Origin: Escherichia coli
GTDB taxonomy: Bacteria > Pseudomonadota > Gammaproteobacteria > Enterobacterales > Enterobacteriaceae
DNA length: 64,000 bases
NCBI RefSeq assembly: GCF_011045215.1
Contig: NZ_CP049201.1
Direction: 5' to 3' (one strand)
Positions 40,337-62,343 of this stretch are shown in pieces. The translations under genes were made by a program, and so were the position numbers. The notes below the pieces were generated by a model that was given only the letters and a program-made list of their open reading frames with translations, was not told the origin of the DNA and ran no database searches. Each line of letters opens with the position of its first letter. The first letter of the stretch is position 1.

Positions 40337-40551
40337 GATCTGCTCCTTATGAATGATTAAGCGGTATAAATGAAAAAGCCGCAGCTCCCGGAGAAGACGC
40401 GGCCTGATGGATGATGTTTATTGTCTGAGGTACCCTTCACGGGCGGGCCACGCATTAAGCTGTTATGACAGCAACCGCCTGCCCGTATGAGAAAGATCCT
40501 TCAGCCAGGACATACTCTGTGTAACCCGGCATATCTGTTTTCTCCTGATAA

Positions 40552-40586
40552 ATAAAAAGCCTCTGCCACGCGTTGTGACAGAGGCT
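40552..40586 (-). terminator. Rho-independent terminator after the IrmA-like gene
   Basis: On the minus strand, GCCTCTG ... CAGAGGC stem followed by TTTTTATTTAT. Confidence 0.7.
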
Positions 40587-40610
40587 GAAGCATGAAACTG
40601 ACTTCAGGGA

Positions 40611-41066: not shown

Positions 41067-41141
41067 GGTATTTACCTCTCTGAGTCATGACGATGACACT
41101 GACAAATCAGGTGATAAAACGTAAAAGGTGCAGAATACTCG

Positions 41142-43664: not shown

Positions 43665-43778
43665 TCCGTGATGAATATCATGTTATTGTTAATGCCAGCG
43701 AATGTGGCGTTGAATATCCGTTGCGCCGGTCCGGGTCCCGATCATGATGACCGGGACCACAGAGAGGCGATGGTTCTG

Positions 43779-46628
43779 TCAGAAGGTCACATTCAGCGTG
43801 GCCTGACCGTTATAGCCTTCGGCGCTGTTGCCGCTGACACTGTGGGCATAACCGGCCTGAACGCCCAGGGTGATATTTTCCCGGACACGGGCTTCCAGTC
43901 CGGCCTGCAGGTCCAGTGACGTGCCATTCCGGGACGGTGAAAACGTCATGTTACTGCCGGCGGCGGCTGTACCCATGCTCATGTCACCCCGGGAGCTGAA
44001 AGTGCGGATAACAGAAGGCTGTACCCACCAGTTCACCGGCAGTTCACTCACACGGTGTTTTGCACTGTCGCGCAGAGTGTCACGGGATGAGGTGCCTTCG
44101 CCAAAAGTCATATCGTTGTGGCTGCCCAGACGGAAGCCGGCACGCACATGTTGTGCACTGCCATGCCCGAACTTCACATAACCGGCGTTATCCTGGCCGT
44201 CATCCAGGGAGAGCCCCTGCCAGGTGTACTGCAGTTGTGGCTCCAGCATCAGGTTGTCAGTGATACTGAAGGGCAGACCGGTTTCCAGTGAGCCCAGCCA
44301 GCCCCAGCCCCGGGCGCGGAAGTCGTTATTGTCCGATGACGCTTTCATGCTGTGGCGGGTTCCCTGGGCCACAATGTCAGCCCACAGGCCGGAGGACGTG
44401 TGTACCAGATTCAGGTATCCGCCCAGGCTGCCGGCATCATCCCGGACCGTGCCGGCACGGGAGCCGTCATCATCCTTAACATCAACGGAAGAATGGCCAG
44501 CAGCACCATACACTCCTGTCGTCAGTGACATACCGGCAACCTCTGTTCTCAGCAGGTCACCCTCCAGACGGACGAGGCCATAGCTGCCGCTGCTTTCCGG
44601 CGTGGCCCCACGGGCAATACCACCGTTGTTATCGTGCCCGAGATGACCGCCCTGAATGCTGAGACGGACGCTGTTATTTTCACCGCTTACACCGGTCTGA
44701 TGGCTGCGGGAACCTGCCAGAATCCGGTCATAGTCCATTGCCTGTGTCAGCATGGAGGCATACAGGGGGACTTCAGCACGATAAGCATTTTCACTGCGCA
44801 GGTACCAGTCTTCATCGCTGTCACGGTTCAGGGTGTAGTTAAAGGCGCCGGCCTGAAGCGGGCGACTCAGGGCAAACGCACCTTCTTCTGTGGTAGCACC
44901 ATTCTGTGCATCCACAACCCGGATACCCTGTCCGGAGGTTGCCACCCCGAGGTTACTGTTTCCGACATTTGTAAACGCAAGCCAGGTTTTGCCGGTTGCC
45001 TGACCACCATTAATCACCAGCTGGTCAGAGGCATTACTGCCATCAAGGCTGACACGCATATTGATGGTGCCGCCCTGGCCGGTGAGGTTCGTGGTGGTTA
45101 GTTTATGGAACGTTACCGGGGAGTTACTTTTTGCAACAGCACGGCTCAGCGCGGCATCCGGTGTCGTCTGATTATCAAAGTGAATCTCTCCTGCGTTAAT
45201 AATATCGCCGGTACTGACCACATCACCATTCAGTACCATACTGGCGCCTTTACTGAGCTGTGTTCTGCCACTCAGACTTCCCCCGGCAGCCAGCGTCAGT
45301 GTTCCACGATGTCCGACAGTGGTGTTGCTGGCCAGTCCTCCGGCATTAACCGTAAAGCTGCCGCCATTTTCCAGCAGCAGGCCGCTGGCCTGACCGGATA
45401 TGCCATCAATACTGAACTTACCGCTGGCATTGGTCCCCTCAACAGTGGCACCACTGTCTGCAATCAGGGCACCACCGGATGTCATGGTGACATCTGTTGC
45501 CTTACCACCGGCAGACACTGCCAGGGTACCGCCGTCATCCACCAGTGTTTTCCAGGCTGAATGGCCCTCCAGTACATCCAGGCGACCGCCGGACTCCAGA
45601 ACAACGCCGTCAGCCTTACCGTTTTCCACTGTGAAATTCCCCAGGCGGTTTGTGCCGGTGACAGTTGCAGCAGTACTGGTAACCAGTGCACCGCCCGTGT
45701 TCTGGGTGACTGCAGTGGCTTCCCCGCCGGCATGTACCCTCAGTTCACCGTTCTGATTTATGGTGGTGTTACCGGCAGCGCCACCGGCCTTAACAACCTG
45801 CCAGCCCCCCTCGTTAATTACCGTGTTCAGCGCCAGTCCGTCCTTGTGCACATACTGGTAACCGCCATTCAGTGTGGTATTCAGGGCCCTTCCGTGTACC
45901 GACTGGTCACCACCTGCGTAAATGAGAGTGTCACGGGCTATCCCGGAAGATAAGATAATCTGCCGTCCATTTTTGTTGATGGTGGTGGATTCTGCTGTTC
46001 CCTGGACCTTCTGACCCGTGTACGAGTTGTCAGAATCCGGGCCGCCTTCTGCGCCGGTGTTGATGATGGTTCCTGTTGCCAGCCCGCCACTTTTAACGCT
46101 CTGGTAACCGTCGCGGTTGATAATTGTACCGGTGGCAACCCCGCCCTCATGAACCCACTGCTCGCCTCTGTTATTCAGCGTGGTGTTCACCGCCAGCCCG
46201 TTCAGGCTCTGTCCCCCGCCGTCACGAATAACCGTATCACTGGCTGTTCCCCCCTCCAGCACGACCTGACGACCATTTGTGGTGACAGTGGTGTTTCCGG
46301 CTATCCCGCCATTCTGTATCCATTGCCCACCGGTGTTTTCTTCACTGTCCGGCCCCAGTTCCAGCCCGGTACTGATGGTCATTCCGTTGGCCGTACCGAG
46401 GACAATCTGGTTGTCATGATTTGTCAGTGTTCCGCCGCTCATGGTTTCTCCCGCCTGTACAACCGTGTCAGCAGCCAGTGCCGGGACTGACGTGACAGCA
46501 GCAAGAGACAGCGCAACCGCCACACCGGTGCGTTTTCCCCGTGAGCGGGCCAGTTCGGAGGCCACCACCAGGGTGCCCGTAATGTGATTCCATACCAGCC
46601 TGTAGCTGGTGTTCAGATGTCGTTTCAT
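43779..46628 (-). CDS. flu: Antigen 43 / Cah-type self-associating autotransporter adhesin
   Basis: 949 aa from MKRHLNTSYRLVWNHITGTLVVASELARSRGKR (extended signal peptide). It has a repetitive beta-helix passenger and a C-terminal barrel ending ...ATLNVTF. Confidence 0.93.
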   Translation of the reverse strand: MKRHLNTSYRLVWNHITGTLVVASELARSRGKRTGVAVALSLAAVTSVPALAADTVVQAGETMSGGTLTNHDNQIVLGTANGMTISTGLELGPDSEENTGGQWIQNGGIAGNTTVTTNGRQVVLEGGTASDTVIRDGGGQSLNGLAVNTTLNNRGEQWVHEGGVATGTIINRDGYQSVKSGGLATGTIINTGAEGGPDSDNSYTGQKVQGTAESTTINKNGRQIILSSGIARDTLIYAGGDQSVHGRALNTTLNGGYQYVHKDGLALNTVINEGGWQVVKAGGAAGNTTINQNGELRVHAGGEATAVTQNTGGALVTSTAATVTGTNRLGNFTVENGKADGVVLESGGRLDVLEGHSAWKTLVDDGGTLAVSAGGKATDVTMTSGGALIADSGATVEGTNASGKFSIDGISGQASGLLLENGGSFTVNAGGLASNTTVGHRGTLTLAAGGSLSGRTQLSKGASMVLNGDVVSTGDIINAGEIHFDNQTTPDAALSRAVAKSNSPVTFHKLTTTNLTGQGGTINMRVSLDGSNASDQLVINGGQATGKTWLAFTNVGNSNLGVATSGQGIRVVDAQNGATTEEGAFALSRPLQAGAFNYTLNRDSDEDWYLRSENAYRAEVPLYASMLTQAMDYDRILAGSRSHQTGVSGENNSVRLSIQGGHLGHDNNGGIARGATPESSGSYGLVRLEGDLLRTEVAGMSLTTGVYGAAGHSSVDVKDDDGSRAGTVRDDAGSLGGYLNLVHTSSGLWADIVAQGTRHSMKASSDNNDFRARGWGWLGSLETGLPFSITDNLMLEPQLQYTWQGLSLDDGQDNAGYVKFGHGSAQHVRAGFRLGSHNDMTFGEGTSSRDTLRDSAKHRVSELPVNWWVQPSVIRTFSSRGDMSMGTAAAGSNMTFSPSRNGTSLDLQAGLEARVRENITLGVQAGYAHSVSGNSAEGYNGQATLNVTF

Positions 46629-46845
46629 CAGCTTTTCCTTACAGAGGGTGAATAAAAAAGCCGGTACCCACAAATGTGGATACCGGCAGGTACAAAACAG
46701 CATGGTCAGATAAAGTGGTTTTTCCCGGACATAAATGCTTCCCCTCTCTCATCCGCCAGAGAAGTATCAGTCCGTTGTGTGCAATTCCGTTCTGCATGAT
46801 GAAGAGATTCAGCTGCCTTTTCGCAGGCCATTAACCACTACAAAC

Positions 46846-46881
46846 GATCGATACTAACGATCGATACCTGTTTTATCGATC
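46846..46881. promoter_or_regulatory. Dam/OxyR phase-variation switch of ag43 (three GATC sites)
   Basis: GATC at 46846, 46859 and 46878, embedded in CGATCGAT repeats about 220-250 bp upstream of the ATG. This matches the known agn43 switch layout. Confidence 0.8.
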
Positions 46882-46999
46882 GTTTTATTCTATTGATAGC
46901 AGGGCAGTCACGCAAGAGAAACAGGAGGGTATGAGGGGTTTGTATCATGTTTTCAGTTGGTTAACGCAATGTAATCAGGCATTTCCCCTGGCAGAGTGT

Positions 47000-47872
47000 T
47001 CAGAAGAAAATCCAGTTCCATACCGCACGGGCAACAGAGACCACCGTGTCACGAACAGCGCGCAGGGCCGTACGGACAACAGAGGCAACACAGACGCTCT
47101 CCGCTGTGTCAAATATCCGGTCCACCGCACCGGTAAACTGTTCACGGGCCTGAGAGCGGACAGATTCCGTGCGCAGCTCGTCCTGCAGTCGGGTCATCAG
47201 GGGACTGGCGGCATGGTCGGGAAGCGCTGTCATGAGCGCACTGACCAGCGTATCCAGTTCCCAGCCGGTGCGGGCCGATACGGCCACAACCGGATGTGCG
47301 GGCCGGAACAGACGGAATACCGCCTCCGTTTTTTCGCGAATGTTCCGTGCCTGTGCGGGAGAGGGCTGAATGCCGGCCATATCCCATTCATGGCAGGGCT
47401 CCGTTTTGTCGGCCTGCGTCACCACAAACAGCACCTGCTGATGTCCCCGGTGCAGGATGTGTCGCCAGAAATACTCATCCACAGACAAGGCACGGTCATC
47501 GGCTTTAATCAGCCACAGTACCAGGTCCAGTTCAGGCAGAATGTCACGGTACAGGGCTTCATACTCTGCATCCCTGTCCCGACTCTCGCCCACCCCGGGC
47601 AGGTCAGTAATAACCATGCTGTGACCGTGGCCACTCAGACGGAAGCGCCGCACTTCCCGGGTGCCGGCGTGAACATCACTGACCGGTGTGACCTCTCCCT
47701 GAAACAGGGCATTACAGAGTGAGGATTTACCGGCCCCGCTTTTCCCCATAATGCCAATCACGGGTTCGTGACTGGTGAGTTTGCGCAGATGTTCCAGGAT
47801 GTGACGGGAAAGTGAGTAAGGCAGGGAGGAGAGCGGTTTTTCAATTGCCTCAATGGCATCAGACGGATTCAT
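47000..47872 (-). CDS. YeeP/YkfA/YfjP-family GTPase
   Basis: 290 aa from the internal Met MNPSDAIEAIEK. Walker A GIMGKSGAGKSS, DLPGVGE and TQADK motifs. Confidence 0.85.
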   Translation of the reverse strand: MNPSDAIEAIEKPLSSLPYSLSRHILEHLRKLTSHEPVIGIMGKSGAGKSSLCNALFQGEVTPVSDVHAGTREVRRFRLSGHGHSMVITDLPGVGESRDRDAEYEALYRDILPELDLVLWLIKADDRALSVDEYFWRHILHRGHQQVLFVVTQADKTEPCHEWDMAGIQPSPAQARNIREKTEAVFRLFRPAHPVVAVSARTGWELDTLVSALMTALPDHAASPLMTRLQDELRTESVRSQAREQFTGAVDRIFDTAESVCVASVVRTALRAVRDTVVSVARAVWNWIFF

Positions 47873-48087
47873 ACATGTATTCCCGGTGAAAAAAGACAAA
47901 ACCCCGCGCACCGGAAAAGTGGCGGGGGACTCACGGAGATAATATCTGCCTAAAATTATTTGGAATGCAGGTATATGCAGCTAATTTGTATCGGCTCATT
48001 AGTACAGAACTAAACCTCATCTGACAGTCCGCTCTGTGCCAAGAGCGGACTTTGCAAAATGGGGGTTATTTCAATCAAAACGTAACG

Positions 48088-49032
48088 TCACAACCAGCCG
48101 ACGCTCTCTCGCCATTTATAATTAGTAACTTTATCATTTTCGCTTATTTTTTTAGATATAGAGCGCGGCTCTCTTCCTAGATACTCAGATATTTCTATCG
48201 GGGACAAATCAAAATCGACAAGCATGACTCTAAGTTTTTCCATTTCCTTTAAAGTCCAAGGCTTGCCATAATTTTCATAAAGAGATACCTTATGCTCCCT
48301 GATAGTTCGCTTTCTCTGAGTTTCACTTTCCCTCTGAAAAATCTCGCTTTTAAATTGTGAACGGAACTCTTTACAGAAGTTGTTATCAGTTTTTTTGTTA
48401 TATAGATTGCTAAAAATAAGCTGGGATGCCGGGTCTAAATCAGGTGTGTTAATAATGAAAACTTTGACCTTTTCCATATAGGGATATTCAATTTTACCCA
48501 ATATGCTTAATTGCTTTATATTAAAAAAACCTCTCAAATCAAAAGATTTAATGAGCTTTGATTGGATTACACTTTCAATCCTGCTTGCATTTGAATAACA
48601 GTACTTTGCCATTGGAAGGGCCCATACTACCAGTTGAGGAATATATTTTTCTAATGCAATGCTCTGCCAATCAGTATCAAAGGTTTGGCTTTTTGCTAGC
48701 ATGTTTTTCGGCAAATCAGAATACATTGTGGTAGATGCCCATATCTTATAATCATTCGCCAAGGCTTGATAGTATTTTGTGTGGTTATGAATTTTATAAG
48801 CTGACATGAAGCGATAAACGTCTTCGTCGTGACCAGCGTCGTAAATTGTTCGATTTCCTCTAAGATAACCGTCGTAATGTTCGGTTATCCTTCTACCTAC
48901 ATTACAACTTACCCCAACGTAAACCACACGACTGAAAAGTCCTTTATGGACAATAAGATAAACTCCGCTACAGCCAGATTTCCTGGCCTCTGATAGAGAA
49001 CCTAAAAATCTCCATTCCATAATTAAATCCAT
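48088..49032 (-). CDS. Orphan GIY-YIG-like nuclease domain protein with a C-terminal Myb/SANT-like HTH
   Basis: 314 aa. N-terminal GVYLIVHKGLFSRVVYVGVSCNVGRRITEHY fits GIY-(10)-YxG...R..EH. Later RIESVIQ/FFN are candidate Glu/Asn. C-terminal KPWTLKEMEKLRVMLVDFDLSPIEISEYLGREPRSISKKI. The gene is markedly AT-rich. Confidence 0.7.
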   Translation of the reverse strand: MDLIMEWRFLGSLSEARKSGCSGVYLIVHKGLFSRVVYVGVSCNVGRRITEHYDGYLRGNRTIYDAGHDEDVYRFMSAYKIHNHTKYYQALANDYKIWASTTMYSDLPKNMLAKSQTFDTDWQSIALEKYIPQLVVWALPMAKYCYSNASRIESVIQSKLIKSFDLRGFFNIKQLSILGKIEYPYMEKVKVFIINTPDLDPASQLIFSNLYNKKTDNNFCKEFRSQFKSEIFQRESETQRKRTIREHKVSLYENYGKPWTLKEMEKLRVMLVDFDLSPIEISEYLGREPRSISKKISENDKVTNYKWRESVGWL

Positions 49033-49494: not shown

Positions 49495-49803
49495 TCAAAG
49501 AGCGGCGATGATGCACAGCCCGCACGAGGCAATATTCGCACAAGAATCAGGTTCAGAAATAACCTGATCTGGCATGGTGGGGAGAGTATCACTGAGCAGG
49601 CTTTCGGTAAAATGCGGCGGGATGAGGTCGGCGTGGGTTGCAGCAGTACAATGTCGCCCGCAGAGGGTAAGCCACAGCGCGGGATCCTCGGTTTCTATCA
49701 GGGATTCGACGAAGTGGGCGCAGTTGTCGACCAAGGCGGTGAAATCCATAGTGACATTATAAGGAAACGAACAATAGATCGAGTAAATCGCAGTCAGGGA
49801 CAA
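49495..49803 (-). CDS. Hypothetical protein (doubtful ORF)
   Basis: 102-aa ORF with a TTG start, or 84 aa from MDFTALVDNCAHF. No recognisable SD or family. Confidence 0.25.
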   Translation of the reverse strand: MSLTAIYSIYCSFPYNVTMDFTALVDNCAHFVESLIETEDPALWLTLCGRHCTAATHADLIPPHFTESLLSDTLPTMPDQVISEPDSCANIASCGLCIIAAL

Positions 49804-49981
49804 GGATTGTAGTCATAGAGAAGTCTCCTGTAACGGTTTTCAGGAAGCTAATCCCGACGCCTGATTTTGCAGGCGCGGAAGGAGAAGATACTGCGGCCAT
49901 TAATCCGCCACAAGGCATTTACGTGCATAAATCGCGCAGTCAAATCCGACTCCCACTGTAGTTCTTGAACCTGATACCACA

Positions 49982-49999
49982 TTTAGCTAATTTAGCTAA
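49982..49999. promoter_or_regulatory. Tandem 9-bp repeat, each unit containing the palindrome TTAGCTAA (operator-like)
   Basis: TTTAGCTAA-TTTAGCTAA lies directly upstream of a TATTAT -10-like hexamer (50006-50011) and 26 bp before ATG 50025. Confidence 0.4.
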
Positions 50000-50024
50000 C
50001 TTATCTATTATACCAGTGGTTGCC

Positions 50025-50270
50025 ATGAATATGAATGAAGACGAGATTTATCGCCATATCCGGCAGGCACTTTCCAGTGCGCCTCGTAACCAGTACACCG
50101 TCGAGCTGCACCTGCAAATGATTAAATATGCCGACAAACTGGAACACATTACGGCAAAAGCCTTTTGCGAAGGCACTGGTCTGAACCAGAGCCTCGGTAC
50201 CGAATTCAGCAAAATGCGTAACTTAACCCATCGGTTAAAGGCCGCCGGTCTGAATACCGATCTGCTGTAA
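50025..50270 (+). CDS. Small protein preceding hsdM, possible HTH regulator
   Basis: 81 aa, MNMNEDEIYRHIRQALSSAPRNQYTVELHLQMIKYADKLEHITAKAFCEGTGLNQSLGTEFSKMRNL. The HTH call is a guess from the A-x3-G-like turn. Confidence 0.55.
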   Translation: MNMNEDEIYRHIRQALSSAPRNQYTVELHLQMIKYADKLEHITAKAFCEGTGLNQSLGTEFSKMRNLTHRLKAAGLNTDLL

Positions 50271-50309: not shown

Positions 50310-52748
50310 ATGGCTATCAAAAAAACCGAACTCTATTCTTCCCTGTGGGCAAGCTGCGACGAACTGCGTGGCGGGATGGACGCCAGCCAGTACAAAGACT
50401 ATGTACTGACCCTGCTGTTTATGAAGTACGTTTCCGATAAGTATAAAGGCGATCCTTACGGGATGATCGTGATACCCAAAGGAGCCAGCTTTGACGATAT
50501 GGTTGCGCTGAAAAATGACAAAGAGATCGGCGACAAAATCAACAAAATCATCCACAAGCTGGCGGAAGAGAACGGCCTGAAGGGCGTCATCGACGAAGCC
50601 GACTTTAACGACGAAGATAAGCTCGGCAAAGGCAAGGAAATGATTGACCGCCTGAGCAAGCTTGTCGGTATCTTTGAAGGGTTAAATCTCTCCAGCAACC
50701 GGGCCGAAGGCGACGATCTGCTGGGCGATGCCTATGAATATCTGATGCGTCACTTCGCAACCGAATCCGGTAAGAGTAAAGGGCAGTTTTACACTCCAGC
50801 GGAGGTGTCACGTATTCTGGCGAAGGTGATTGGTATTACTCCCGATACTCCGCAAGATGCAACGGTTTATGACCCAACCTGTGGCTCTGGTTCGCTGCTG
50901 TTGAAAGTGAATGATGAAGCCCGGCGCGGACTGTCGATTTTCGGCCAGGAGATGGATAACGCTACCAGTGCGCTGGCGCGGATGAACATGATTCTGCATA
51001 ACAATGCCACCGCGAAAATCTGGCAGGGCAATACGCTGAGCGATCCGCAGTGGAAAGAGGCGAACGGCAAACTGAAAGCCTTCGATTTTGCCGTGGCGAA
51101 CCCGCCTTTTTCCAATAAAAACTGGACCAACGGGCTGACGCCGAAAAAAGATCCGTTTGAACGCTTCGGCTGGGGTATTCCGCCGGAAAAAAACGGCGAT
51201 TATGCTTTTTTGTTGCATATCATTAAAAGCCTGAAAAGTACCGGCAAAGGCGCGGTGATCCTGCCCCACGGCGTACTGTTTCGCGGTAACGCCGAAGCGA
51301 ATATCCGTGAAAATCTAATCAAGCAGGGCTATATCAAAGGCGTTATTGGTTTGCCAGCCAACCTGTTTTACGGCACCGGCATCCCGGCGTGCATCATTGT
51401 GATTGATAAAGAGCACGCCCACAGCCGCAAAGGCATTTTTATGATCGACGCCAGCCGGGGCTTTATCAAAGATGGCAACAAGAACCGCCTGCGTAGCCGA
51501 GATATTCACCGCATTGTGGACGTGTTCAACCATCAGCGAACGGTACCTGGCTACAGCCGGATGGTGCCCTCCAGCGAGATCGCCGGAAATGATTACAACC
51601 TGAATATTCCTCGCTATATCGAGAGCGGCGAGCCGGAAGATTTACACGATCTGACCGCGCACTTACAGGGCGGTATTCCGGCACGCGATGTGGATGCTTT
51701 GCAAGATTACTGGCGGGTATTCCCTGCCCTGCGCAACGTGCTGTTTGCTGACGACCGTCCCGGTTACTGTCGGGCGCAGGTGAACGCGCAACAGGTGAAA
51801 CCGACCATTCTGGCGCATCAGGAGTTTAAGGATTTTGCCACCCGCAGCCTGCTACCGTTTAAAGCGTGGGTGAAAGAGGCAAGTCTGGAAGAGATTCGCA
51901 AAGGTGATAAACCCAAAGCGCTAATCCACGATATCAGCGAAATGCTATTGGCGCAGTACGCCAACAGTGAGTTGCTGAACAAATACAGCGTGTACCAGAT
52001 CCTGATGGATTACTGGACTGATGTCATGCAAGACGATGTGTATGCGATTATGCAGGATGGCTGGCAAGCCGCCGCGCAAATCCGCGAGCTTCAGCCGGTG
52101 AAAGGCAAAGATGGCAAAAACATCTGGAAAGAAACGCACGATTTCGAGTTTACCAAACGGCGCTACAAGGCCGATGTGCTGCCCCGTTCGCTGGTGGAAA
52201 TTCGCTGTTTCCCGGAACTGCTGGATGCGCTGAACCGCGCGCAGGAGCGCAGTGAAGAAGCCAGTCGTCAGCTAGTGGAATTCATCGAGGAGCAGGCAGG
52301 TGAAGAGGATCTGCTGGCCGAGGCGAAGAACGATAAAGATAAGGTGACGCAAAAGCTGGTGAATGCCCGTCTAGCACAGTTAAAGAAAACCACTGCCGGC
52401 CCAGATGAGCTGGCAGTGCTGAACCGCTGCCTGGCGCTAATTAAGGCCGAAGCCAGTGCGAAAAAAGCGCTGAAAGCCGCACAAGAAGCGCTGGATCGGG
52501 CGGTGTTTAAACATTATCCCACGCTGGATGAAGCAGCGATTAAAACGCTGGTAGTGCAGGATAAGTGGCTGGCAACGTTGCAGGCAGGGATCAAGGCGGA
52601 GATTGAGCGTATTACCCAGCAACTGGCGTCGCGCGTAAAGGAGCTGGAAGAGCGTTATGCTGAACCGTTGCTAGCGCTTGAAGCCTCCGTTGAGGCGTTG
52701 AGCGAGAAAGTGGCCGGGCATTTGCGGGCGATGGGGCTGGAGTGGTGA
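50310..52748 (+). CDS. hsdM: Type I R-M DNA methyltransferase subunit HsdM with a long C-terminal coiled-coil extension
   Basis: 812 aa. AdoMet motif DPTCGSGSLLL and catalytic NPPF (AVANPPFSNKNW). The last ~300 aa are E/K/A/L-rich. Confidence 0.92.
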   Translation: MAIKKTELYSSLWASCDELRGGMDASQYKDYVLTLLFMKYVSDKYKGDPYGMIVIPKGASFDDMVALKNDKEIGDKINKIIHKLAEENGLKGVIDEADFNDEDKLGKGKEMIDRLSKLVGIFEGLNLSSNRAEGDDLLGDAYEYLMRHFATESGKSKGQFYTPAEVSRILAKVIGITPDTPQDATVYDPTCGSGSLLLKVNDEARRGLSIFGQEMDNATSALARMNMILHNNATAKIWQGNTLSDPQWKEANGKLKAFDFAVANPPFSNKNWTNGLTPKKDPFERFGWGIPPEKNGDYAFLLHIIKSLKSTGKGAVILPHGVLFRGNAEANIRENLIKQGYIKGVIGLPANLFYGTGIPACIIVIDKEHAHSRKGIFMIDASRGFIKDGNKNRLRSRDIHRIVDVFNHQRTVPGYSRMVPSSEIAGNDYNLNIPRYIESGEPEDLHDLTAHLQGGIPARDVDALQDYWRVFPALRNVLFADDRPGYCRAQVNAQQVKPTILAHQEFKDFATRSLLPFKAWVKEASLEEIRKGDKPKALIHDISEMLLAQYANSELLNKYSVYQILMDYWTDVMQDDVYAIMQDGWQAAAQIRELQPVKGKDGKNIWKETHDFEFTKRRYKADVLPRSLVEIRCFPELLDALNRAQERSEEASRQLVEFIEEQAGEEDLLAEAKNDKDKVTQKLVNARLAQLKKTTAGPDELAVLNRCLALIKAEASAKKALKAAQEALDRAVFKHYPTLDEAAIKTLVVQDKWLATLQAGIKAEIERITQQLASRVKELEERYAEPLLALEASVEALSEKVAGHLRAMGLEW

Positions 52749-54088
52749 TGGTGGATTTAATGGTGAATGAGCAACGGTCGAGTACGGCGGGGAAAGATGT
52801 GCCTGCGGGGTATAAACTGACTGAGGTGGGCGTGATTCCTGAGGATTGGGATTGCGTACCATTTGGTAATCTGTTTAAAACAAACACAAAGAAAAAAAAA
52901 GTCAGCGATTATGAGCTAGTTTCATTTATTGGGATGCAGGATGTTAGTGAAGATGCACAATTAAAAAATAATACTCAACTTCCTTTTAAAGAAGTTAAAA
53001 GTGGTTTTACTTACTTTGAAAAAGGGGATGTTTTATTAGCTAAAATAACCCCTTGTTTTGAAAATGGAAAAGGATGTCATACCGCTGATTTACCTACTAA
53101 TGTAGGTTTTGGGAGTACGGAATTTCATGTATTAAGGGAAAATGAAGACTCCGATTCTCGCTTCATCTATTTTTGGACAACTGATAAAAAATTCAGAGCA
53201 TCACTGGAATCTGAAATGGTGGGAAGTGCGGGACACCGTCGTGTGCCGCTAGTTGCTATAGAAAAATATTTGATTCCATGTCCCCCAAATTTGCAAGAGC
53301 AAAGTGCTATTGCTGATTCATTATCTGATATTAATAATTTTATTCTAGCTCTAGAAAAGCTTATCGTTAAAAAACAAGCCATTAAAACCGCTACTATGCA
53401 GCAACTACTGACGGGTAAAACCCGTTTGCCACAGTTTGCGTTACGCAAAGATGGCTCTGCTAAGGGATATAAAAAGAGCGAGTTGGGGGCGATTCCTGAA
53501 GATTGGGTAGTCACAAGCATTGGACAATTTACTGACTGCTGTGCTGGTGGAACTCCGAGTACTAAAATTTCAGCATATTGGGGAGGAACTCATCCTTGGA
53601 TGAGTTCCGGCGAATTACACTTAAAACAAGTGTATGCTGTAGCCGATTATATAACCGACGAAGGGCTTGTTAACTCCAGTACAAAGTATGTGCCTAAAAA
53701 TTCTGTATTAGTCGGATTGGCAGGACAAGGAAAGACTCGAGGGACTGTAGCAATTAATCGCATTGAATTATGTACTAATCAGTCTATTGCTGCGATTTTC
53801 CCCAGCAAACATCATTCCACAGAATTCCTGTTCTATAACCTCGACAGTCGTTATGAGGAACTGAGAAGTTTATCTACTGGTGATGGGGGGCGTGGTGGGT
53901 TGAATCTTACTATTATCAGGAAATTACATCTTGCATTTCCGCCAAAAGAAGAACAAGCCGCCATCGCCGCCATCCTCTCCGATATGGACAAGGAAATCCA
54001 GATCCTGCAACAGCGTCTGGACAAAACCCGCCAGCTTAAGCAAGGGATGATGCAGGAACTGTTAACCGGGAAAATCCGCTTAATATAG
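52748..54088 (+). CDS. hsdS: Type I R-M specificity subunit HsdS
   Basis: Two TRDs, each opened by ..IPEDW..., and two conserved helices ending QQLLTGKTRLP / QELLTGKIRL. ATG 52748 overlaps the hsdM TGA. An in-frame GTG at 52742 is an alternative start. Confidence 0.92.
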   Translation: MVDLMVNEQRSSTAGKDVPAGYKLTEVGVIPEDWDCVPFGNLFKTNTKKKKVSDYELVSFIGMQDVSEDAQLKNNTQLPFKEVKSGFTYFEKGDVLLAKITPCFENGKGCHTADLPTNVGFGSTEFHVLRENEDSDSRFIYFWTTDKKFRASLESEMVGSAGHRRVPLVAIEKYLIPCPPNLQEQSAIADSLSDINNFILALEKLIVKKQAIKTATMQQLLTGKTRLPQFALRKDGSAKGYKKSELGAIPEDWVVTSIGQFTDCCAGGTPSTKISAYWGGTHPWMSSGELHLKQVYAVADYITDEGLVNSSTKYVPKNSVLVGLAGQGKTRGTVAINRIELCTNQSIAAIFPSKHHSTEFLFYNLDSRYEELRSLSTGDGGRGGLNLTIIRKLHLAFPPKEEQAAIAAILSDMDKEIQILQQRLDKTRQLKQGMMQELLTGKIRLI

Positions 54089-54100
54089 AAGGGAAAGCAC

Positions 54101-54757
54101 ATGGCTTATGATTACAGCGCCAGCCTCAACCCGCAAAAAGCTCTGATCTGGCGTATCGTCCATCGGGACAATATCCCGTGGATTCTGGATAACGGGCTGC
54201 ACTGCGGCAACAGTCTGGTGCAGGCGGAAAACTGGATCAATATCGGCAACCCGGAGCTGATCGGCAAGCGTGCCGGGCATCCGGTACCTGTCGGAACGGG
54301 CGGGACACTGCATGACTATGTGCCGTTTTATTTTACCCCCTTCTCGCCAATGCTGATGAACATCCACAGCGGGCGCGGCGGCATTAAGCAACGCCCCAAT
54401 GAGGAGATCGTTATTCTGGTCAGCAACTTGCGGAACGTGGCAGCACACGACGTGCCCTTCGTGTTTACCGACAGCCATGCTTACTATAACTGGACCAACT
54501 ACTACACCAGTCTGAATAGTCTGGACCAGATCGACTGGCCCATTTTGCAGGCACGGGACTTTCGCCGCGATCCAGACGATCCGGCTAAATTTGAACGCTA
54601 TCAGGCAGAGGCGCTAATCTGGCAACACTGCCCGATCTCTCTGCTGGATGGGATAATTTGTTACAGCGAAGAGGTCAGGTTACAATTAGAGCAATGGCTG
54701 TTTCAGCGTAATCTAACAATGTCCGTTCACACACGGGCTGGATGGTACTTCTCATGA
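54101..54757 (+). CDS. darT: DarT-like (DUF4433) DNA ADP-ribosyltransferase toxin
   Basis: 218 aa. Motifs [29 protein letters not shown] and YQAEALIW, ending AGWYFS. These closely parallel DarT as I remember it. Confidence 0.85.
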
Positions 54758-55821
54758 TCACATATACACAAGGCAATTTACTGGACGCACCGGTGGAAGC
54801 TCTGGTGAATACGGTTAATACCGTCGGTGTCATGGGGAAAGGCATCGCGTTGATGTTTAAAGAGCGCTTCCCCGAAAATATGAAAGTCTATGCCCTCGCT
54901 TGCAAACAAAAGCAGGTGATCACCGGCAAAATGTTCATTACCGAAACCGGGGAACTGATGGGACCGCGCTGGATTGTTAATTTTCCGACCAAACAGCACT
55001 GGCGCGCTGATTCCCGCATGGAGTGGATTGAAGATGGCTTGCAGGACTTACGCCGCTTTTTGATTGAAGAGAACGTGCAGTCCATCGCCATTCCACCACT
55101 GGGCGCAGGCAACGGTGGTTTGAACTGGCCGGACGTTCGGGCGCAGATTGAATCTGCCCTTGGCGACCTTCAGGACGTTGATATCCTGATTTACCAACCG
55201 ACTGAAAAATACCAGAACGTTGCCAAAAGCACTGGCGTAAAAAAGCTCACTCCCGCCAGAGCCGCCATCGCTGAACTGGTGCGTCGCTACTGGGTATTGG
55301 GGATGGAGTGCAGCCTACTGGAAATCCAGAAACTGGCCTGGCTGTTACAACGCGCCATTGAGCAGCATCAACAGGACGATATCCTCAAACTGCGGTTTGA
55401 AGCTCACTATTATGGCCCCTATGCGCCCAATCTGAACCATCTGCTTAATGCGCTGGACGGCACCTATCTAAAAGCCGAGAAACGCATCCCGGACAGCCAA
55501 CCGCTGGATGTGATCTGGTTTAACGATCAAAAAAAAGAACACGTTAATGCGTATCTGAACAACGAAGCCAGAGAGTGGCTACCTGCGCTGGAGCAGGTCA
55601 GCCAGTTAATTGACGGCTTTGAATCGCCGTTTGGTCTGGAGTTGCTGGCAACCGTAGACTGGTTGCTGAGCCGTGGCGAATGTCAACCAACGCTGGATTC
55701 CGTTAAGGAAGGACTGCACCAGTGGCCTGCGGGCGAACGCTGGGCCAGCCGTAAGTTGAGGCTGTTTGATAATAATAATCTGCAATTTGCCATTAACCGC
55801 GTAATGGAGTTCCATTGCTGA
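54754..55821 (+). CDS. darG: DarG-like macrodomain antitoxin (ADP-ribosyl-DNA glycohydrolase)
   Basis: 355 aa from [40 protein letters not shown] (macrodomain) plus a C-terminal domain. Its ATG overlaps the darT stop as ATGA. Confidence 0.85.
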
Positions 55822-55839
55822 GGGTTTAAGGAGCGCCTT

Positions 55840-58800
55840 TTGAGTACCGTGGGCCAGCGCGAACGCGCCACACAGCAGCGTCTGATTCAGTTTTTTGTTG
55901 AAGATTTAGGATACCGCCATCTGAGTCACCGCACCGGGTACACCGGGAACAGCAACATCGACACTAATATACTGAGCGCGTGGCTAAAACGGCGCGGCGT
56001 TAATGATACGTTGATCACCCGGGCGTTGCGGCAACTGGATTCCGCCGCCGCCCTGGGCGAAGGCAAAAAACTCTATTACGCCAATAAAGAGGTCTATCGC
56101 CTGCTGCGTTACGGCGTGAAAGACAAAGAAGGTGCAGGCGAGCAGAACCAAACCGTGTGGCTGATTGACTGGGCCAACCCACAAGCCAATGATTTCGCCA
56201 TCGCCGATGAGGTGACGGTCAAAGGCGAGTACTGCAAGCGCCCGGATCTGGTGCTGTACGTTAACGGCATTGCGCTGGGCGTGATTGAACTTAAGCGTTC
56301 GTCAGTGCACGTCAGCGAAGGTATCCGGCAGAATCTCGATAATCAAAAGAAAACCTTTATCCGCGATTTCTTCACCACTATGCAGTTAGTGATGGCAGGC
56401 AACGATACGCAGGGCCTGCGCTACGGCACCATCGAAACCCCGGAAAAATACTATCTGGAGTGGAAAGAAGATAATCCAGGCGACTATACACATAAACTCG
56501 ACTTTCATTTAAGTCGTCTGTGTAGCAAATCCAGGCTGTTGGATATCGTCCATAATTACATTGTCTTTGATGTCGGGGTGAAAAAACTCTGCCGCCATAA
56601 TCAGTTCTTCGGCGTCGAGGCGGCTAAGCAACATATTGCCCGTCGTGAAGGCGGTATTATCTGGCACACACAGGGATCGGGTAAAAGCCTGACGATGGTC
56701 TGGCTGGCGAAGTGGATCCGTGAAAATGTGCCAAACTCCCGCGTGTTGATTGTGACTGACCGCACCGAACTGGATGAACAGATCGAAAGCGTGTTTATGG
56801 GCGTGAATGAAGATATTTATCGCACCTCCAGCGGCAACGATCTTATCGCAACGCTCAATCATCCTAACCCGTGGCTTATTTGCTCGCTGGTGCATAAATT
56901 TGGTTGTCGCAGCGAAGCTGAAGACAATGCGGCTACCGACGCCTTTATCACCGAATTACAGCAGTCCCTGACGAAAACATTCCGCGCCAAAGGCGATCTG
57001 TTTGTTTTTGTGGACGAGTGCCACCGCACACAATCCGGCAAGCTGCATAACGCCATGACTGCCATTCTGCCGGACGCCCTGTTTATCGGTTTTACCGGCA
57101 CACCGCTGATGAAGAAAGATAAGAAGAAGTCGGTTGAGGTGTTCGGCCCTTATATCCATACCTATAAATTTGATGAAGCGGTGGCCGACGGTGTGGTGCT
57201 GGATCTGCGCTACGAGGCGCGCGATATTGACCAGTATCTGACATCAGAGAAAAAGGTCGATGACTGGTTTGAAGCCAAGACTCGCGGTTTGTCGAATTTA
57301 GCCAGGACCCAGCTTAAGCAAAAGTGGGGATCAATGCAGAAGCTGCTCTCCAGCAAGTCGCGGCTGGAGCAGATCGTTAACGACATTTTGCTGGATATGG
57401 ATACCCGTCCACGCCTGATGGACGGGCGCGGCAACGCCATGCTGGTATGCAGCAGTATCTATCAAGCCTGCAAGGTTTACGAGATGTTCAGCCAGACCGA
57501 GCTGGCAGGAAAAGTAGCGATTGTGACCAGCTATCGCCCCGATGCCGCCAGCATCAAAGGCGAAGAAACGGGCGAAGGGTTAACGGAGAAACTCTCTAAA
57601 CACGCCACCTATCGTAAAATGTTGGCTGACTATTTTGAACAAAGTGAAGAGAAGGCCGCCGCACGCATTACCGAGTTCGAGCGGGAAGTGAAACAACGTT
57701 TTATTGAAGAGCCGGGGCAAATGCGCCTGCTTATCGTGGTGGACAAGCTGTTGACTGGCTTTGACGCGCCGTCCGCCACCTATCTCTACATTGATAAAAC
57801 CATGACCGACCATACGCTGTTTCAGGCGATTTGTCGGGTGAACCGGCTGGACGGTGAGGATAAAGAGTATGGCTATATTATCGATTATAAAGATCTGTTC
57901 CGTTCGCTGGATAAAGCGATTACCGATTACACCACGGGCGCGTTTGATGATTACGATCGGGACGATGTGGCCGGGTTGCTGAAAGACAGGCTGGAGCAGG
58001 CGCAACTGGATCTCGACAGCGCGCTGGAGATGGTTCGCAGCTTATGTGAGCCCGTCAAAACCCCGCGCAGCCTGCAGGACTATCAGCACTATTTTTGCGG
58101 TAAATCAGGAGAGAATCAGACTTCGTTAAACGAAAAAGAGGCGCTGCGCCTGACATTTTACCAGTGCGTCGCCCGTCTGCTACGCGCTTATGCCAGCATC
58201 GCCAATGAAATGCCGGAAGCAGGCTACACTGCCGAAGAGGTAGAGAGCATTCGCGCCGAAGTCGCTGAATTCGAAAAACTGCGCTATGAGATTAAGCTGA
58301 CCAGCGGCGATCTTCTGGATATGAAGCGCTTTGAACCCGCTATGCGTCATTTACTGGATATGTATGTTCGCGCCGATGGTAGCGAAGTGCTGATGGATTT
58401 TGAAGAGTTAAGTCTGATTGAACTGATTGTCGAGAAAGGCTTGGCGGCGACCGTCGCCCTGCCGGATGATATCCGTAATAATCAGGATGCGATGGCGGAA
58501 ACCATCGAAAACAACGTGCGCAAAACCATCGTGGATGAAAACCCGGTTAACCCAAAATACTATGGACGCATGTCGCAGCTGCTGGATGAACTGATTACCC
58601 TTCGCCGACAAAATGCGCTCAATTATCAGCAGTATCTGGAACGTATCCGCGATTTGTGTAAACAGGTCATCCGCCCGGAGCAAACCGCCGGAGCGTGCTA
58701 CCCTGCCACCATGGATACACAAGCAAAGCGCGCCTTCTATGACAACTTCGGCCACGACGAGGTACTGGCGACCCGCATAGATACGACAATTCGCTATACC

Positions 58801-58935
58801 AAAAGGGCAGAGTGGATTGGCGATCGTTTTAAAGAACGGGAAATTGCCAACGCATTACGTGAAGAGACCGCCAGCTATAATATTGATATTGATGAGGTGA
58901 TAGCGCTTGCCCGTCAGCAGAAGGAATATCACTGA
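55840..58935 (+). CDS. hsdR: Type I R-M restriction/translocase subunit HsdR
   Basis: 1031 aa. PD-(D/E)xK nuclease RPDLVLYVNGIALGVIELK, helicase motif I HTQGSGKSLTM and motif II FVDECHRTQ. TTG start preceded by AAGGAG. Confidence 0.93.
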   Translation: MSTVGQRERATQQRLIQFFVEDLGYRHLSHRTGYTGNSNIDTNILSAWLKRRGVNDTLITRALRQLDSAAALGEGKKLYYANKEVYRLLRYGVKDKEGAGEQNQTVWLIDWANPQANDFAIADEVTVKGEYCKRPDLVLYVNGIALGVIELKRSSVHVSEGIRQNLDNQKKTFIRDFFTTMQLVMAGNDTQGLRYGTIETPEKYYLEWKEDNPGDYTHKLDFHLSRLCSKSRLLDIVHNYIVFDVGVKKLCRHNQFFGVEAAKQHIARREGGIIWHTQGSGKSLTMVWLAKWIRENVPNSRVLIVTDRTELDEQIESVFMGVNEDIYRTSSGNDLIATLNHPNPWLICSLVHKFGCRSEAEDNAATDAFITELQQSLTKTFRAKGDLFVFVDECHRTQSGKLHNAMTAILPDALFIGFTGTPLMKKDKKKSVEVFGPYIHTYKFDEAVADGVVLDLRYEARDIDQYLTSEKKVDDWFEAKTRGLSNLARTQLKQKWGSMQKLLSSKSRLEQIVNDILLDMDTRPRLMDGRGNAMLVCSSIYQACKVYEMFSQTELAGKVAIVTSYRPDAASIKGEETGEGLTEKLSKHATYRKMLADYFEQSEEKAAARITEFEREVKQRFIEEPGQMRLLIVVDKLLTGFDAPSATYLYIDKTMTDHTLFQAICRVNRLDGEDKEYGYIIDYKDLFRSLDKAITDYTTGAFDDYDRDDVAGLLKDRLEQAQLDLDSALEMVRSLCEPVKTPRSLQDYQHYFCGKSGENQTSLNEKEALRLTFYQCVARLLRAYASIANEMPEAGYTAEEVESIRAEVAEFEKLRYEIKLTSGDLLDMKRFEPAMRHLLDMYVRADGSEVLMDFEELSLIELIVEKGLAATVALPDDIRNNQDAMAETIENNVRKTIVDENPVNPKYYGRMSQLLDELITLRRQNALNYQQYLERIRDLCKQVIRPEQTAGACYPATMDTQAKRAFYDNFGHDEVLATRIDTTIRYTKRAEWIGDRFKEREIANALREETASYNIDIDEVIALARQQKEYH

Positions 58936-59651
58936 TGCCAATCATGCAAATAGGCTCGTTACACTTGCTGGTCAACCGTAAGGCGATTAAGAATCTGCAT
59001 ATCAGCGTGCTGCCGCCTGATGGCAAAGTCCGCGTTTCAGCGCCGGAACATATGACGGAGACGGCGATTCGTATGGCGGTTGCTTCACGCTTTCGCTGGA
59101 TCAGAAAACAGCAGCAGGATTTCGCCAGACAGCCTCGTCAATCAGAGAGGGAAATGGTCAGCGGAGAGTGCCACTATCTTTGGGGCCGAAGATATCGCCT
59201 ACTTGTGATTGAGCGTCACGGGCGTCACGAAGTAAAAGTTGCGGGAAATAATAAGCTCCAGCTTTATGTTCAACCGGGAACCCGTGATGAAAATAAGGCA
59301 TTGGCGTTAAGTGAATTTTATCGACATGAACTAAAACAGCAGGTGGCTAAGCTTCTACCTGAATGGCAAGACCGAATCGGTGTTCCCCTAACATTCTGGG
59401 GCATCAAAAAGATGAAAACCTTTTGGGGCACCTGTAACACTACAACAAAACGAATCTGGCTCAATCTGGAGCTAATTAAGAAGCCGCCGGAGTGTCTGGA
59501 GTATATTCTGGTGCATGAACTGGTTCATCTTCTGGAACGTCACCATAATGCTCGCTTCCGGTTGCATATGGATCGGTTTATTCCTGACTGGCGTGAGCGT
59601 CGGGATTTGTTAAATAATATGCCGTTAGCGTTTGAGGCATGGGAGTATTGA
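58935..59651 (+). CDS. M48/DUF45 (YgjP-like) zinc metallopeptidase
   Basis: 238 aa with HEXXH in ILVHELVHLLERHHN. Its ATG overlaps the hsdR TGA (TGATG). Confidence 0.85.
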   Translation: MPIMQIGSLHLLVNRKAIKNLHISVLPPDGKVRVSAPEHMTETAIRMAVASRFRWIRKQQQDFARQPRQSEREMVSGECHYLWGRRYRLLVIERHGRHEVKVAGNNKLQLYVQPGTRDENKALALSEFYRHELKQQVAKLLPEWQDRIGVPLTFWGIKKMKTFWGTCNTTTKRIWLNLELIKKPPECLEYILVHELVHLLERHHNARFRLHMDRFIPDWRERRDLLNNMPLAFEAWEY

Positions 59652-60258: not shown

Positions 60259-60816
60259 TTAAAAGCGATAACCCACGCCAATATTGAATCCATTAATGGA
60301 ATAATTATCGCCAAGTTTTGCTCTGGTTCCTTCATATCCGGCATTAATTGTAATATTACTTGTCGGATTGATCATTACCCCGGCAGCATAAGCAAAAGAT
60401 GTGGATTTTTTCGAAATATTTTCTCTGGCGAAATAACCATCAACGTTTGTCCATGCTGTTTTACCATCAGCTTTAACATGCGCCACGCCGCCAGCCGCAT
60501 ACAGTGACATATAATCGTTAATGCGCCATACGGGGCCGGTCAGTAAGGAATAATATTTTGCATCAACCTGGTTTTTAATTGAATCGCCATATGAATGATA
60601 TTCCTGATTACCATCCCCTTTCATCCAGGAGAAACTGCCCATAATACTGACCGGGGAGTCCCATTCATACCTGTACTGCAGGTTTACCCCTCTAATATTC
60701 TTGAAGTTCTGAATTTTACTCTGTGCATAACCGACAGAAAACGAATGGTTGTCAGCCAGCACGGAACCGCTTGCCACTGATAATATGATGGCTGAAAGAA
60801 CTGACAGTTTTTTCAT
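60259..60816 (-). CDS. Ail/Lom/OmpX/PagC-family 8-stranded outer membrane protein
   Basis: 185 aa, signal peptide MKKLSVLSAIILSVASGSVLA, SVGYAQSK start and ...GFNIGVGYRF C-terminal beta-signal. Confidence 0.85.
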   Translation of the reverse strand: MKKLSVLSAIILSVASGSVLADNHSFSVGYAQSKIQNFKNIRGVNLQYRYEWDSPVSIMGSFSWMKGDGNQEYHSYGDSIKNQVDAKYYSLLTGPVWRINDYMSLYAAGGVAHVKADGKTAWTNVDGYFARENISKKSTSFAYAAGVMINPTSNITINAGYEGTRAKLGDNYSINGFNIGVGYRF

Positions 60817-61081: not shown

Positions 61082-61315
61082 TCAGAACCCCTTAACTTTC
61101 ATGATATGCAACAAACCAATACCCAAGCCTAAGATCCCCCCCCCATACACACTCATTTTTAACAGTCTAGAAAACTGAAAAACTTCAAATGATATTGGGG
61201 CATTCAAATAAAAATACATAAATATCTTCAGAAGAAGATAAAAAATCGAACCGACTATAAACAAACCAAATATGCATACAGTCATTAATAAGACAACAAT
61301 AAGAAGGTTCTTCAT
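61082..61315 (-). CDS. Small polytopic membrane protein, candidate CdiI-type immunity protein
   Basis: 77 aa, almost entirely hydrophobic (2-3 TM helices). Its ATG overlaps the stop of the upstream toxin fragment as ATGA. Confidence 0.65.
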
Positions 61316-62343
61316 TTCCCAGCCTCCATTGCATCTTTCTTTTTCTGGATAATGGAGCTTCCAAACTCAGATGATAAACTACCACCCGCATTACCCACAG
61401 CACCAGGGATCTTACTCGGTACCATTTCTTTAGATAGACCTAACTGCCCTTTAACTTCAGTATATTTTAGTAGAGTCGGATCGAATTTAGGATTCCAGCC
61501 ACCGGTTATCCATTTACCGATTGTATTTGCAGCAGGCTTGACCACATAATTGCCAACCCCATATCCAAACCCGGCCCCCGCTCCATTTGTAATCGCCCCA
61601 GTAAGAGGATCATCTCCGTTTATGGCGTTGGTTAATGCTCCACCTGCCGCATTCCAGGCTATTGTCCCTTTCCAGCCCTGCCCCATGGTGATTACATTGA
61701 CCCATCCTGCAATGATTGCATTTTCAGGATCAACTGAACTATCTACCATGTAACCAATTCCTGCATTTGCACCTGTGCCAAGAGCCCACATGGCCTGAGC
61801 ACCGCCAGGTAAGAGAGCTACACTACCAGTGGCCAACGCTCCGGCATACGCTTTATTGACTGCTTCTCCTCGCTTACAGGCTTCACCGCCTGGGGCATCG
61901 TTACAGGAAAGTACATCTGCGCCATGCGTCTGAGCAGCTTTGCTCTGCTCGGACTCTGTGCCACCAACCAAGTTATTCTCAGCAATGTTCTTCCCAACAC
62001 CAGCCCCTGCAGCCGCGCCAGCCACATCGCCACTGGCAATGCCGCCAGCCATACCCGCTGACAGCGTTGCCAGCGTGCTTATCGTCTGCTTCTGCTCTTC
62101 ACTGAGGTCTGACTGTTTCACGCCCGGATACAGCATTCCGATCGCTCTGGCTGCCAGCTCTCCCGTTGCTGCGCCTGCTGCACCAGCAGCAACATTATTA
62201 CTCTGCATTGCCGCTACTGCACCGCCCAGAATGGCGTGAGCAATGGCCTTTACTGCCGGGTCTTTTTCTGTTGATTTCAGCAGGTATGCCAGTTCCGGAG
62301 CCGAAGCTCCCGCCAGTACTGCACCAACGTCACCACCTGCCAG
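61312..62343 (-). pseudogene. cdiA: Orphan cdiA-CT module: start-less 3' fragment of a CdiA/haemagglutinin-type exoprotein (pretoxin region plus Gly-rich toxin tip)
   Basis: The frame is open from the in-frame TAG at 62344-62346, with no plausible start. It reads ...[79 protein letters not shown]...GKNIAENNL. That is the CdiA pretoxin region ending in a VENN-type (AENN) motif, followed by a ~215-aa glycine-rich C-terminal domain. Confidence 0.75.

Follow-up and report, generated by a model that had tools for sequence, protein, structure and literature searches.

The window analysed here is a stretch of 64,000 nucleotides of Escherichia coli DNA (assembly GCF_011045215.1, contig NZ_CP049201.1) that carries, at positions 50310-59651 on the plus strand, the toxin-antitoxin (TA) gene pair darT-darG within the genes of a type I restriction-modification (R-M) system. 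Judged by its sequence, the locus is an allele of an island whose architecture is already known, namely RRDM (RptR-RMS-DarTG2-M48), which was described with seven open reading frames (ORFs) in enteropathogenic E. coli (EPEC) E2348/69 (Zhang et al., Nucleic Acids Res 2025; PMC12255303). We consider it fairly probable that the island combines co-regulated, layered and autonomous defences, with a DarTG2 passenger that acts in parallel to R-M, and the comparison with related loci suggests that the interval between hsdS and hsdR is a reusable slot for cargo, in which the embedded DarTG travels as a self-sufficient passenger. The embedding does not imply that DarT is masked by the restriction complex in the way PrrC is. 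The value of the locus is that of a ready experimental system, being a natural allele of a cloned and phage-protective island; the comparative result is that embedding is facultative, occurs in one backbone type and uses a slot that is common to many cargos.

Six ORFs are tightly packed on the plus strand of the feature, in the order hsdM, hsdS, darT, darG, hsdR and a gene encoding a YgjP-like/M48 peptidase. The gene hsdM (50310..52748), encoding a long-form type I methyltransferase subunit of 812 aa, and hsdS (52748..54088), encoding a specificity subunit of 446 aa, meet in the motif TGATG at 52746-52750, in which, by direct reading, the hsdM TGA overlaps the hsdS ATG. The hsdS stop codon (54086-54088) is followed by 12 nt (AAGGGAAAGCAC, 54089-54100) and then by the ATG of darT at 54101. 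The toxin gene darT (54101..54757; 218 aa) and the antitoxin gene darG (54754..55821; 355 aa) have an ATGA in common at 54754-54757; the darG stop codon (55819-55821) is followed by 18 nt that include AAGGAG and then by the TTG start codon of hsdR at 55840 (55840..58935; restriction/translocase subunit of 1031 aa); and the hsdR TGA overlaps the ATG of the peptidase gene (58935..59651; 238 aa) in a second TGATG, at 58933-58937. The gene starts agree with the NCBI annotation of near-identical E. coli loci. A preliminary description of this DNA had given the junctions and coordinates of the six genes, and they agreed in every detail with the ORF list and with direct reading of the sequence, so that the operon-like packing is real; the translational coupling that it also proposed is what the spacing points to. 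The extent of six genes had to be widened: the six genes stand, and a seventh, co-oriented gene and its promoter/operator had been overlooked. This gene, rptR (50031..50270, plus strand), is the first of the island, ends 39 nt upstream of hsdM and encodes a 79-aa putative helix-turn-helix-like repressor (Pfam HTH_73, 3.5e-28). The resulting order rptR-hsdM-hsdS-darT-darG-hsdR-M48, all on one strand, is that of RRDM.

Protein identities were counted against an E2348/69-derived genome and amount to: 355/355 for DarG, 238/238 for the M48 peptidase, 216/218 (99%) for DarT, 1027/1031 (99.6%) for HsdR, 794/812 (97.8%) for HsdM, 76/79 (96%) for RptR (WP_000343040.1) and 304/453 (67%) for HsdS. The EPEC island has the same gene order, junctions and promoter as the window and differs in its HsdS allele, in the operator repeats and in the flanks, which consist of a CP4-type island on one side and an Ail/Lom gene plus a cdiA fragment on the other in the window, and of insertion sequence (IS) elements in EPEC. 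When carried on pBR322, RRDM protected more than 10^7-fold against the phages Trib and Baz, ~10^4-fold against lambda-vir and TB34 and ~10^3-fold against T7, and Zhang et al. also saw a second type of cargo there and described the site as a potential hotspot (PMC12255303). That DarTG is frequently inserted in type I R-M operons had been noted in the 2016 paper that defined DarTG (PMC5179494).

Within E. coli the island was found in ~246-248 of 5426 complete genomes at ~99% identity: darTG in 248 genomes, at least 80% of the whole locus in 246 and hsdR at ≥90% identity in ~252, the closest genome being that of strain EC5654 (99.8%). We sought natural knock-outs in E. coli, i.e. this hsd backbone without darTG, and found a clonal island, with ~74%-identity relatives that carry a DUF262 cargo as the exception; E. 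coli alone is therefore uninformative on knock-outs. That the island is nearly always intact (246 genomes with at least 80% of the locus against 248 with darTG) is in line with an alternative proposed by Jankevicius et al. in 2016 (PMC5179494), according to which the TA pair mainly protects the R-M operon and the mobile island from loss through post-segregational killing and defence is secondary, as is the location on a CP4-type mobile island that is linked to tRNA-Ser and has IS elements at its flanks. We hold stabilisation as the main role to be quite unlikely: with copies that are ~99% identical the intactness reflects recent spread rather than demonstrated stabilisation, type I R-M already resists loss, poorly or well, on its own, the slot also carries cargo other than TA pairs, and DarTG2 systems are shown phage defences. 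A stabilising role would nevertheless be compatible with parallel, co-regulated defences, as the two are not exclusive.

The predicted promoter and RptR operator of the island (49965..50007, plus strand) were recognized from direct reading of the sequence, from motif positions and from the match to the EPEC promoter. A -35 box (TTGAAC, 49965-49970) is followed by three predicted operator sites with a 9-bp spacing, TAGCTA at 49984-49989, TAGCTA at 49993-49998 and TATCTA at 50002-50007, which overlap the -10 region; the RRDM promoter is characterized by at least two such 6-bp palindromic RptR sites overlapping the -10 region. EPEC has three TAGCTA sites, so that one of the 9-bp repeats is different, and as TATCTA is an allowed variant, three predicted sites remain in the window. 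In EPEC, where the promoter was defined by green fluorescent protein reporters and electrophoretic mobility shift assays, a single promoter was active, upstream of rptR, and was repressed by RptR binding to TAGCTA-type palindromes, and the hsdM mRNA from this promoter increased more than 15-fold upon phage infection (PMC12255303). A promoter and terminator scan of the locus gave matches at or below chance and no plus-strand promoter-like site within hsdS, and the 12-nt gap between hsdS and darT leaves darT without intergenic room for a promoter of its own. The tight spacing together with the lack of promoter-like sites above chance points to a single transcript. One candidate for an internal darG promoter (54658-54686, a 9/12 site upstream of darG) was indistinguishable from chance and was dropped. 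Just upstream of the RRDM promoter lie two low-GC (0.37) ORFs on the minus strand, 48088-49032 and 49495-49803, for which Pfam gave no match and which the annotation of related E. coli genomes lists as hypothetical proteins.

The cargo itself is, by all family matches, a complete DarTG2 module that is predicted to be catalytically intact. DarT, the putative single-stranded DNA (ssDNA) thymidine ADP-ribosyltransferase toxin, matches PF14487 (2.3e-53) and the equivalog model NF048013 (262.9 bits, cut-off 150), and its catalytic glutamate E170, which is invariant across 20 homologues, corresponds in the alignment to E160, the residue mutated in the Thermus DarT structure 7OMV. DarG, the putative macrodomain ADP-ribosylglycohydrolase antitoxin, matches Macro (2.8e-21) and NF048014 (451 bits, cut-off 250); over residues 1-152 it matches the macrodomain of Thermus DarG (5M31, 4.2e-55), with K80 retained, and over residues 183-351 chain B in the structure of the DarT-DarG complex (7YK3, 5.4e-13), i.e. 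a C-terminal DarT-binding domain and no NADAR domain. The DarT fold with its catalytic glutamate, the two-domain DarG with the K80 macrodomain, the toxin-then-antitoxin gene order and the ATGA overlap are all features of DarTG2 systems. From the identity with the EPEC proteins and the published biochemistry of the family we infer that DarT ADP-ribosylates ssDNA in a thymidine-specific manner and that DarG reverses the modification. Other DarTG2 systems, cloned without hsd genes, defend E. coli and Pseudomonas aeruginosa (PMC11257639, PMC13309987, bioRxiv 10.1101/2025.11.20.689424). We also asked whether the window holds the same allele as the E. coli DarTG2 of the LeRoux laboratory, which is not the case: the cloning primer remained unmatched in the window at up to 3 mismatches.

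The R-M genes were identified with equal clarity, and the identities that the preliminary description had assigned to all six genes proved right, with Pfam, NCBIfam and PADLOC in agreement and scores far above the curated cut-offs. HsdM contains N6_Mtase (6.7e-104) and HsdM_N (2.4e-17), scores 282.8 bits with TIGR00497 (cut-off 242.75) and matches the PADLOC model MTase_I PDLC03027 over its full length. HsdS contains Methylase_S in two stretches, i.e. two target-recognition domains, and matches Specificity_I PDLC03098 of PADLOC over its full length (1.4e-127). In HsdR we found HSDR_N (2.9e-41), SWI2_SNF2 (1.8e-69), a T1R_D3-like domain (2e-38) and ResIII, with 546 bits for TIGR00348 (cut-off 284.55). 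The combination of an HsdM, a two-domain HsdS and an HsdR with nuclease and superfamily 2 translocase domains places the system within type I R-M. HsdM is extended at its C-terminus by a helical region of ~370 aa (residues 441-812; 51630-52745 in the window), for which the AlphaFold model is confident (pLDDT, the predicted local distance difference test, 89) and consists of long helical hairpins and a small beta subdomain; the extension had no sequence match in Pfam, NCBIfam or the PDB, and a Foldseek search against the PDB gave coiled-coil noise only (best E 0.14). HsdS is the divergent member of the island, with identities of 67% to the allele of EPEC and 71% to the one of strain EC5654, against 98-100% for the flanking genes, and the GC content falls to 0.41-0.43 across hsdS as compared to ~0.51 in the neighbouring genes. 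The divergence of HsdS on a constant backbone shows swapping of target-recognition domains, and the recognition sequence of the window system probably differs from that of EPEC. The last gene of the island encodes a YgjP-like zinc metallopeptidase (PF01863, 1.4e-61, with a weak SprT-like match), which the NCBI pipeline names 'M48 family metallopeptidase'.

We surveyed the genetic context of related DarTG pairs by scanning one genome per species, which yielded at least 524 relatives; we retained the 80 loci with the closest DarT (63-88% identity). The neighbouring genes, approximated by longest ORFs, were classified with iterative profiles seeded from the window proteins, and a locus is called standalone when there was no match within 10 kb. 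The darT-darG pair was retained in 80/80 of these loci. The pair was embedded as hsdS-[darTG]-hsdR in 24 loci; a type I R-M system was nearby and not around the pair in 11 (mostly hsdM-hsdS-hsdR-darTG); 31 had no type I R-M system within 10 kb; and the flanks of 14 were too short to classify. DarTG is hence embedded in ~36% and free of R-M in ~47% of the 66 classifiable loci, and the survey also recovered further cargo types. At the 31 R-M-free loci a Pfam scan of 124 flanking ORFs returned housekeeping families, with no R-M among the most frequent. In a tree of DarT+DarG the embedded and standalone loci interleave, with at least 13 switches by parsimony; standalone pairs are up to 87-93% identical to embedded ones, and a standalone copy of Phytobacter nests within the embedded enterobacterial clade. 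The median lengths of DarT and DarG are equal in the two classes, the embedded copies have no added domain, and no column of the DarT or DarG alignments separates embedded from standalone pairs. DarG positions 54 and 94 were considered as a signature of embedding and exceeded label permutation, but they were distributed 5:0 in 12 phylogenetically independent pairs like several other columns, and were rejected.

A second, divergent DarT paralogue was found directly upstream of darT in 21/80 of the related loci, be they embedded, R-M-adjacent or standalone (for example L004:9423-9998, L005:9423-9998, L075:9421-9996 and L048:3611-4204). It has ~190 aa, 70-78 bits for PF14487 and the catalytic glutamate in an 'AEC' motif, and forms a three-gene darT'-darT-darG module of which we found no description in the literature examined. 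In comparison with the published DarTG2 systems, the DarTG of the window, which begins 12 nt after hsdS, has no room for a promoter of its own, and it lacks the upstream paralogue.

The survey also bears on the possibility that the N6-adenine methylation by the Hsd proteins and the thymidine ADP-ribosylation by DarT are coordinated, for instance with methylation steering DarT or DarG. Such crosstalk was raised in the 2016 DarTG paper (PMC5179494) and would be favoured by co-expression of the genes from one operon, given the single transcript that the spacing predicts. We regard it as very improbable, since about half of the DarTG loci are without any R-M system, since the literature searched yielded no experiment in its support, and since the hsdS alleles vary freely (HsdS 67%) while DarT and DarG stay constant (99-100%), from which it follows that DarTG is not matched to the recognition sequence.

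The embedded loci have one type of backbone in common. Their HsdM comprises 804-958 aa wherever a complete hsdM lies in the fetched locus, as compared to the usual ~500-520 aa, and a YgjP/M48 gene follows hsdR in 22 of the 24 loci, which are all those whose contig extends beyond hsdR; the R-M systems that neighbour DarTG without embedding it have mostly short HsdM proteins and in no case an M48 gene. The spacing is similar across genera, with -8 to +12 nt between hsdS and darT and mostly 9-37 nt between darG and hsdR. The same backbone carries other cargo. In E. coli AL.H8 (L002; NZ_CP082349.1, 4664-12665), with an hsdR that is 74% identical to that of the window, the slot holds two DUF262/GmrSD-like genes, the gap after hsdS is 12 nt as in the window, the junctions overlap and the M48 gene is at 11952-12665. 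The cargo found in other genera includes: pairs of GmrSD_N+DUF7834 and of GmrSD_N+GmrSD_C, a NERD nuclease, RES/HEPN_RES_NTD1, an AAA_15/21 ATPase with DUF3696, a Zeta-toxin-like kinase and DUF1810, often as several genes and often beside DarTG (L015:4002-9780; L075:2825-9380; L048:414-3614; L054:11700-12281). In L052 and L060 a YhcG PD-(D/E)xK nuclease lies between hsdM and hsdS.

The peptidase gene overlaps or abuts the hsdR stop codon in every cargo-slot backbone seen, regardless of the cargo. As RptR is present at only 7/24 of the embedded loci, the peptidase tracks hsdR and not the repressor. It could serve in HsdR turnover, in restriction alleviation or in the removal of stalled complexes; a literature search for a link between M48/YgjP and hsdR returned the RRDM paper alone.

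Embedded genes in type I R-M systems, of which the preliminary description had proposed a survey, had already been surveyed in 2024 by Payne et al. (bioRxiv 10.1101/2024.01.29.577857). According to the sections of that preprint drawn on here, type I R-M systems commonly contain embedded genes, 96.7% of these are co-oriented, GmrSD-like cargo is frequent, and co-regulation and complementary targeting are proposed as its purpose. The 'guilt-by-embedding' cassettes described in these sections (in type I R-M, BREX, DISARM and Hma) are likewise co-oriented, nested defence cassettes with the same cargo types; the same sections do not mention DarTG, and its restriction to the backbone with a long HsdM and an M48 peptidase is our own observation, of which we saw no statement in them.

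Taken as a whole, these data fit the following scheme, in which each step is conditional. The promoter that precedes rptR and is repressed by RptR would drive the whole island as a single unit, the part beyond hsdM being extrapolated. HsdM2S1 would methylate the host DNA and, together with HsdR, cleave unmodified incoming DNA. DarT would ADP-ribosylate thymidines in the ssDNA of phage and host once the control by DarG lapses during infection, while DarG would otherwise neutralise the toxin in two ways: by reversal of the modification through its macrodomain and by sequestration of DarT through its C-terminal domain. The embedding would then provide co-regulation, co-transfer and a complementary range that extends to phages able to disable type I restriction, for example T7 with its Ocr. 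T7 encodes Ocr, a blocker of R-M, and the 1000-fold restriction of this phage by RRDM fits a non-R-M layer that covers anti-restriction phages; an independent DarTG layer would explain it without any sensing of R-M inhibition.

The preliminary description had put forward another reading of the same layout: a PrrC-like guard, in which contact with HsdMSR keeps DarT or DarT-DarG latent and a phage anti-restriction protein (Ocr, ArdA or Stp-like) that disables the complex frees DarT as a second-line effector. The positional analogy on which it was built holds, as darT-darG (54101-55821) occupies the very interval between hsdS and hsdR that is taken by prrC in EcoprrI (hsdM-hsdS-prrC-hsdR). The layout itself, offered as the basis of a new hypothesis, had been published before, in 2016 and as RRDM. 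Our search returned no paper that tests DarTG as a guard of R-M, no report of an association of DarT or DarG with HsdM, HsdS or HsdR and no experiment that speaks against a guard; the statement that such a relationship has not been shown is borne out for the literature searched. Systems that guard R-M form an established class (PrrC, PARIS, Ronin, retrons); PrrC and, with HsdMS, the RonA of Ronin, whose genes lie within or beside a type I hsd operon, act as backups against restriction-inhibiting phages. The strong enrichment of DarTG in or beside type I R-M (35/66 here, and noted in 2016) speaks for a guard, as do the restriction of Ocr-encoding T7, which an autonomous DarTG explains equally well, and the confinement of the embedded copies to one backbone, whose ~370-aa HsdM extension could conceivably be a docking surface.

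We nevertheless consider a guard unlikely. The linkage is not near-exclusive, with 31/66 of the DarTG loci free of R-M and standalone copies that share 87-93% identity with embedded pairs. For PrrC, the part of the Payne et al. preprint used here (bioRxiv 10.1101/2024.01.29.577857) reports that it occurs almost only embedded in type I R-M, and it takes occurrence apart from the host system as the mark of a defence that acts independently. PrrC and RonA come without an antidote and are kept masked by Hsd proteins, whereas DarT comes with an adjacent antidote that acts in two modes. The embedded copies have no extra domain, no difference in length and no robust residue signature, DarTG2 clones that lack hsd genes do defend, and the same slot holds cargo for which no guard logic is required, GmrSD-like type IV nucleases for example. 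The CP4-type element that carries the island moreover encodes an Antirestriction-family protein, which would be hazardous for a general sensor of anti-restriction. As to the backbones, EcoprrI is a type IC system with an HsdM of normal length, whereas the backbone here has a long HsdM and an M48 peptidase. In EcoKI, hsdR is expressed separately from hsdMS, which makes the boundary between hsdS and hsdR the natural permissive joint of the operon and offers a neutral explanation for the position that prrC and darTG have in common. A broader version of the idea, in which the embedded DarTG2 is functionally coupled, within the long-HsdM and YgjP/M48 backbone, to the restriction complex or to its regulator, and in which inhibition of HsdMSR by anti-restriction proteins, or else relief of RptR repression or activity of the M48 peptidase during infection, shifts the balance between DarT and DarG so that DarT is released, appears similarly doubtful to us. 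If a guard did exist, a DNA-modifying TA pair would join PrrC, PARIS, Ronin and some retrons as sensors of restriction inhibition, and it would show the recruitment of an autonomous TA module as a guard.

Several points weigh against parallel, autonomous layers. Type I R-M lies within 10 kb at 35/66 of the loci, which is far above random placement and makes a functional benefit of the linkage likely, possibly a mechanistic one. The confinement of embedded DarTG to the long-HsdM and M48 backbone would also fit a backbone-specific interaction. The survey covers the best 80 of at least 524 relatives, with ORF-based calls and profiles seeded from the window. Zhang et al. report neither deletions nor a co-transcription assay nor a test of synergy, and the mRNA assayed in EPEC was that of hsdM, with none across hsdS-darT or darG-hsdR (PMC12255303). 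We infer, finally, both the trigger of DarT release and the independence of the DarTG and HsdMSR layers within RRDM.

The island lies downstream of a tRNA-Ser(GGA) gene (35428-35515) and of the CP4-type integrative island on the minus strand that follows this gene (together 35428-47911 in the window). This element contains, all on the minus strand: genes for a DUF4942 protein, the toxin CbtA (37286-37765), RadC (38449-38940), an Antirestriction-family protein (PF03230, KlcA/ArdB-like; 38941-39426), a DUF932 protein, IrmA, an Ag43-like autotransporter (43779-46703) and a GTPase (47000-47911). Because of the PF03230 gene, the mobile element that carries the R-M and DarTG genes also encodes a predicted anti-restriction protein. 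Downstream of the island, on the minus strand, are a gene for an Ail/Lom-family outer-membrane protein (60259-60816) and an ORF with a PT-VENN pre-toxin domain (61312-62208), which is probably a fragment of cdiA, involved in contact-dependent inhibition; in strain EC5654 a cdiA with a frameshift occupies the corresponding position.

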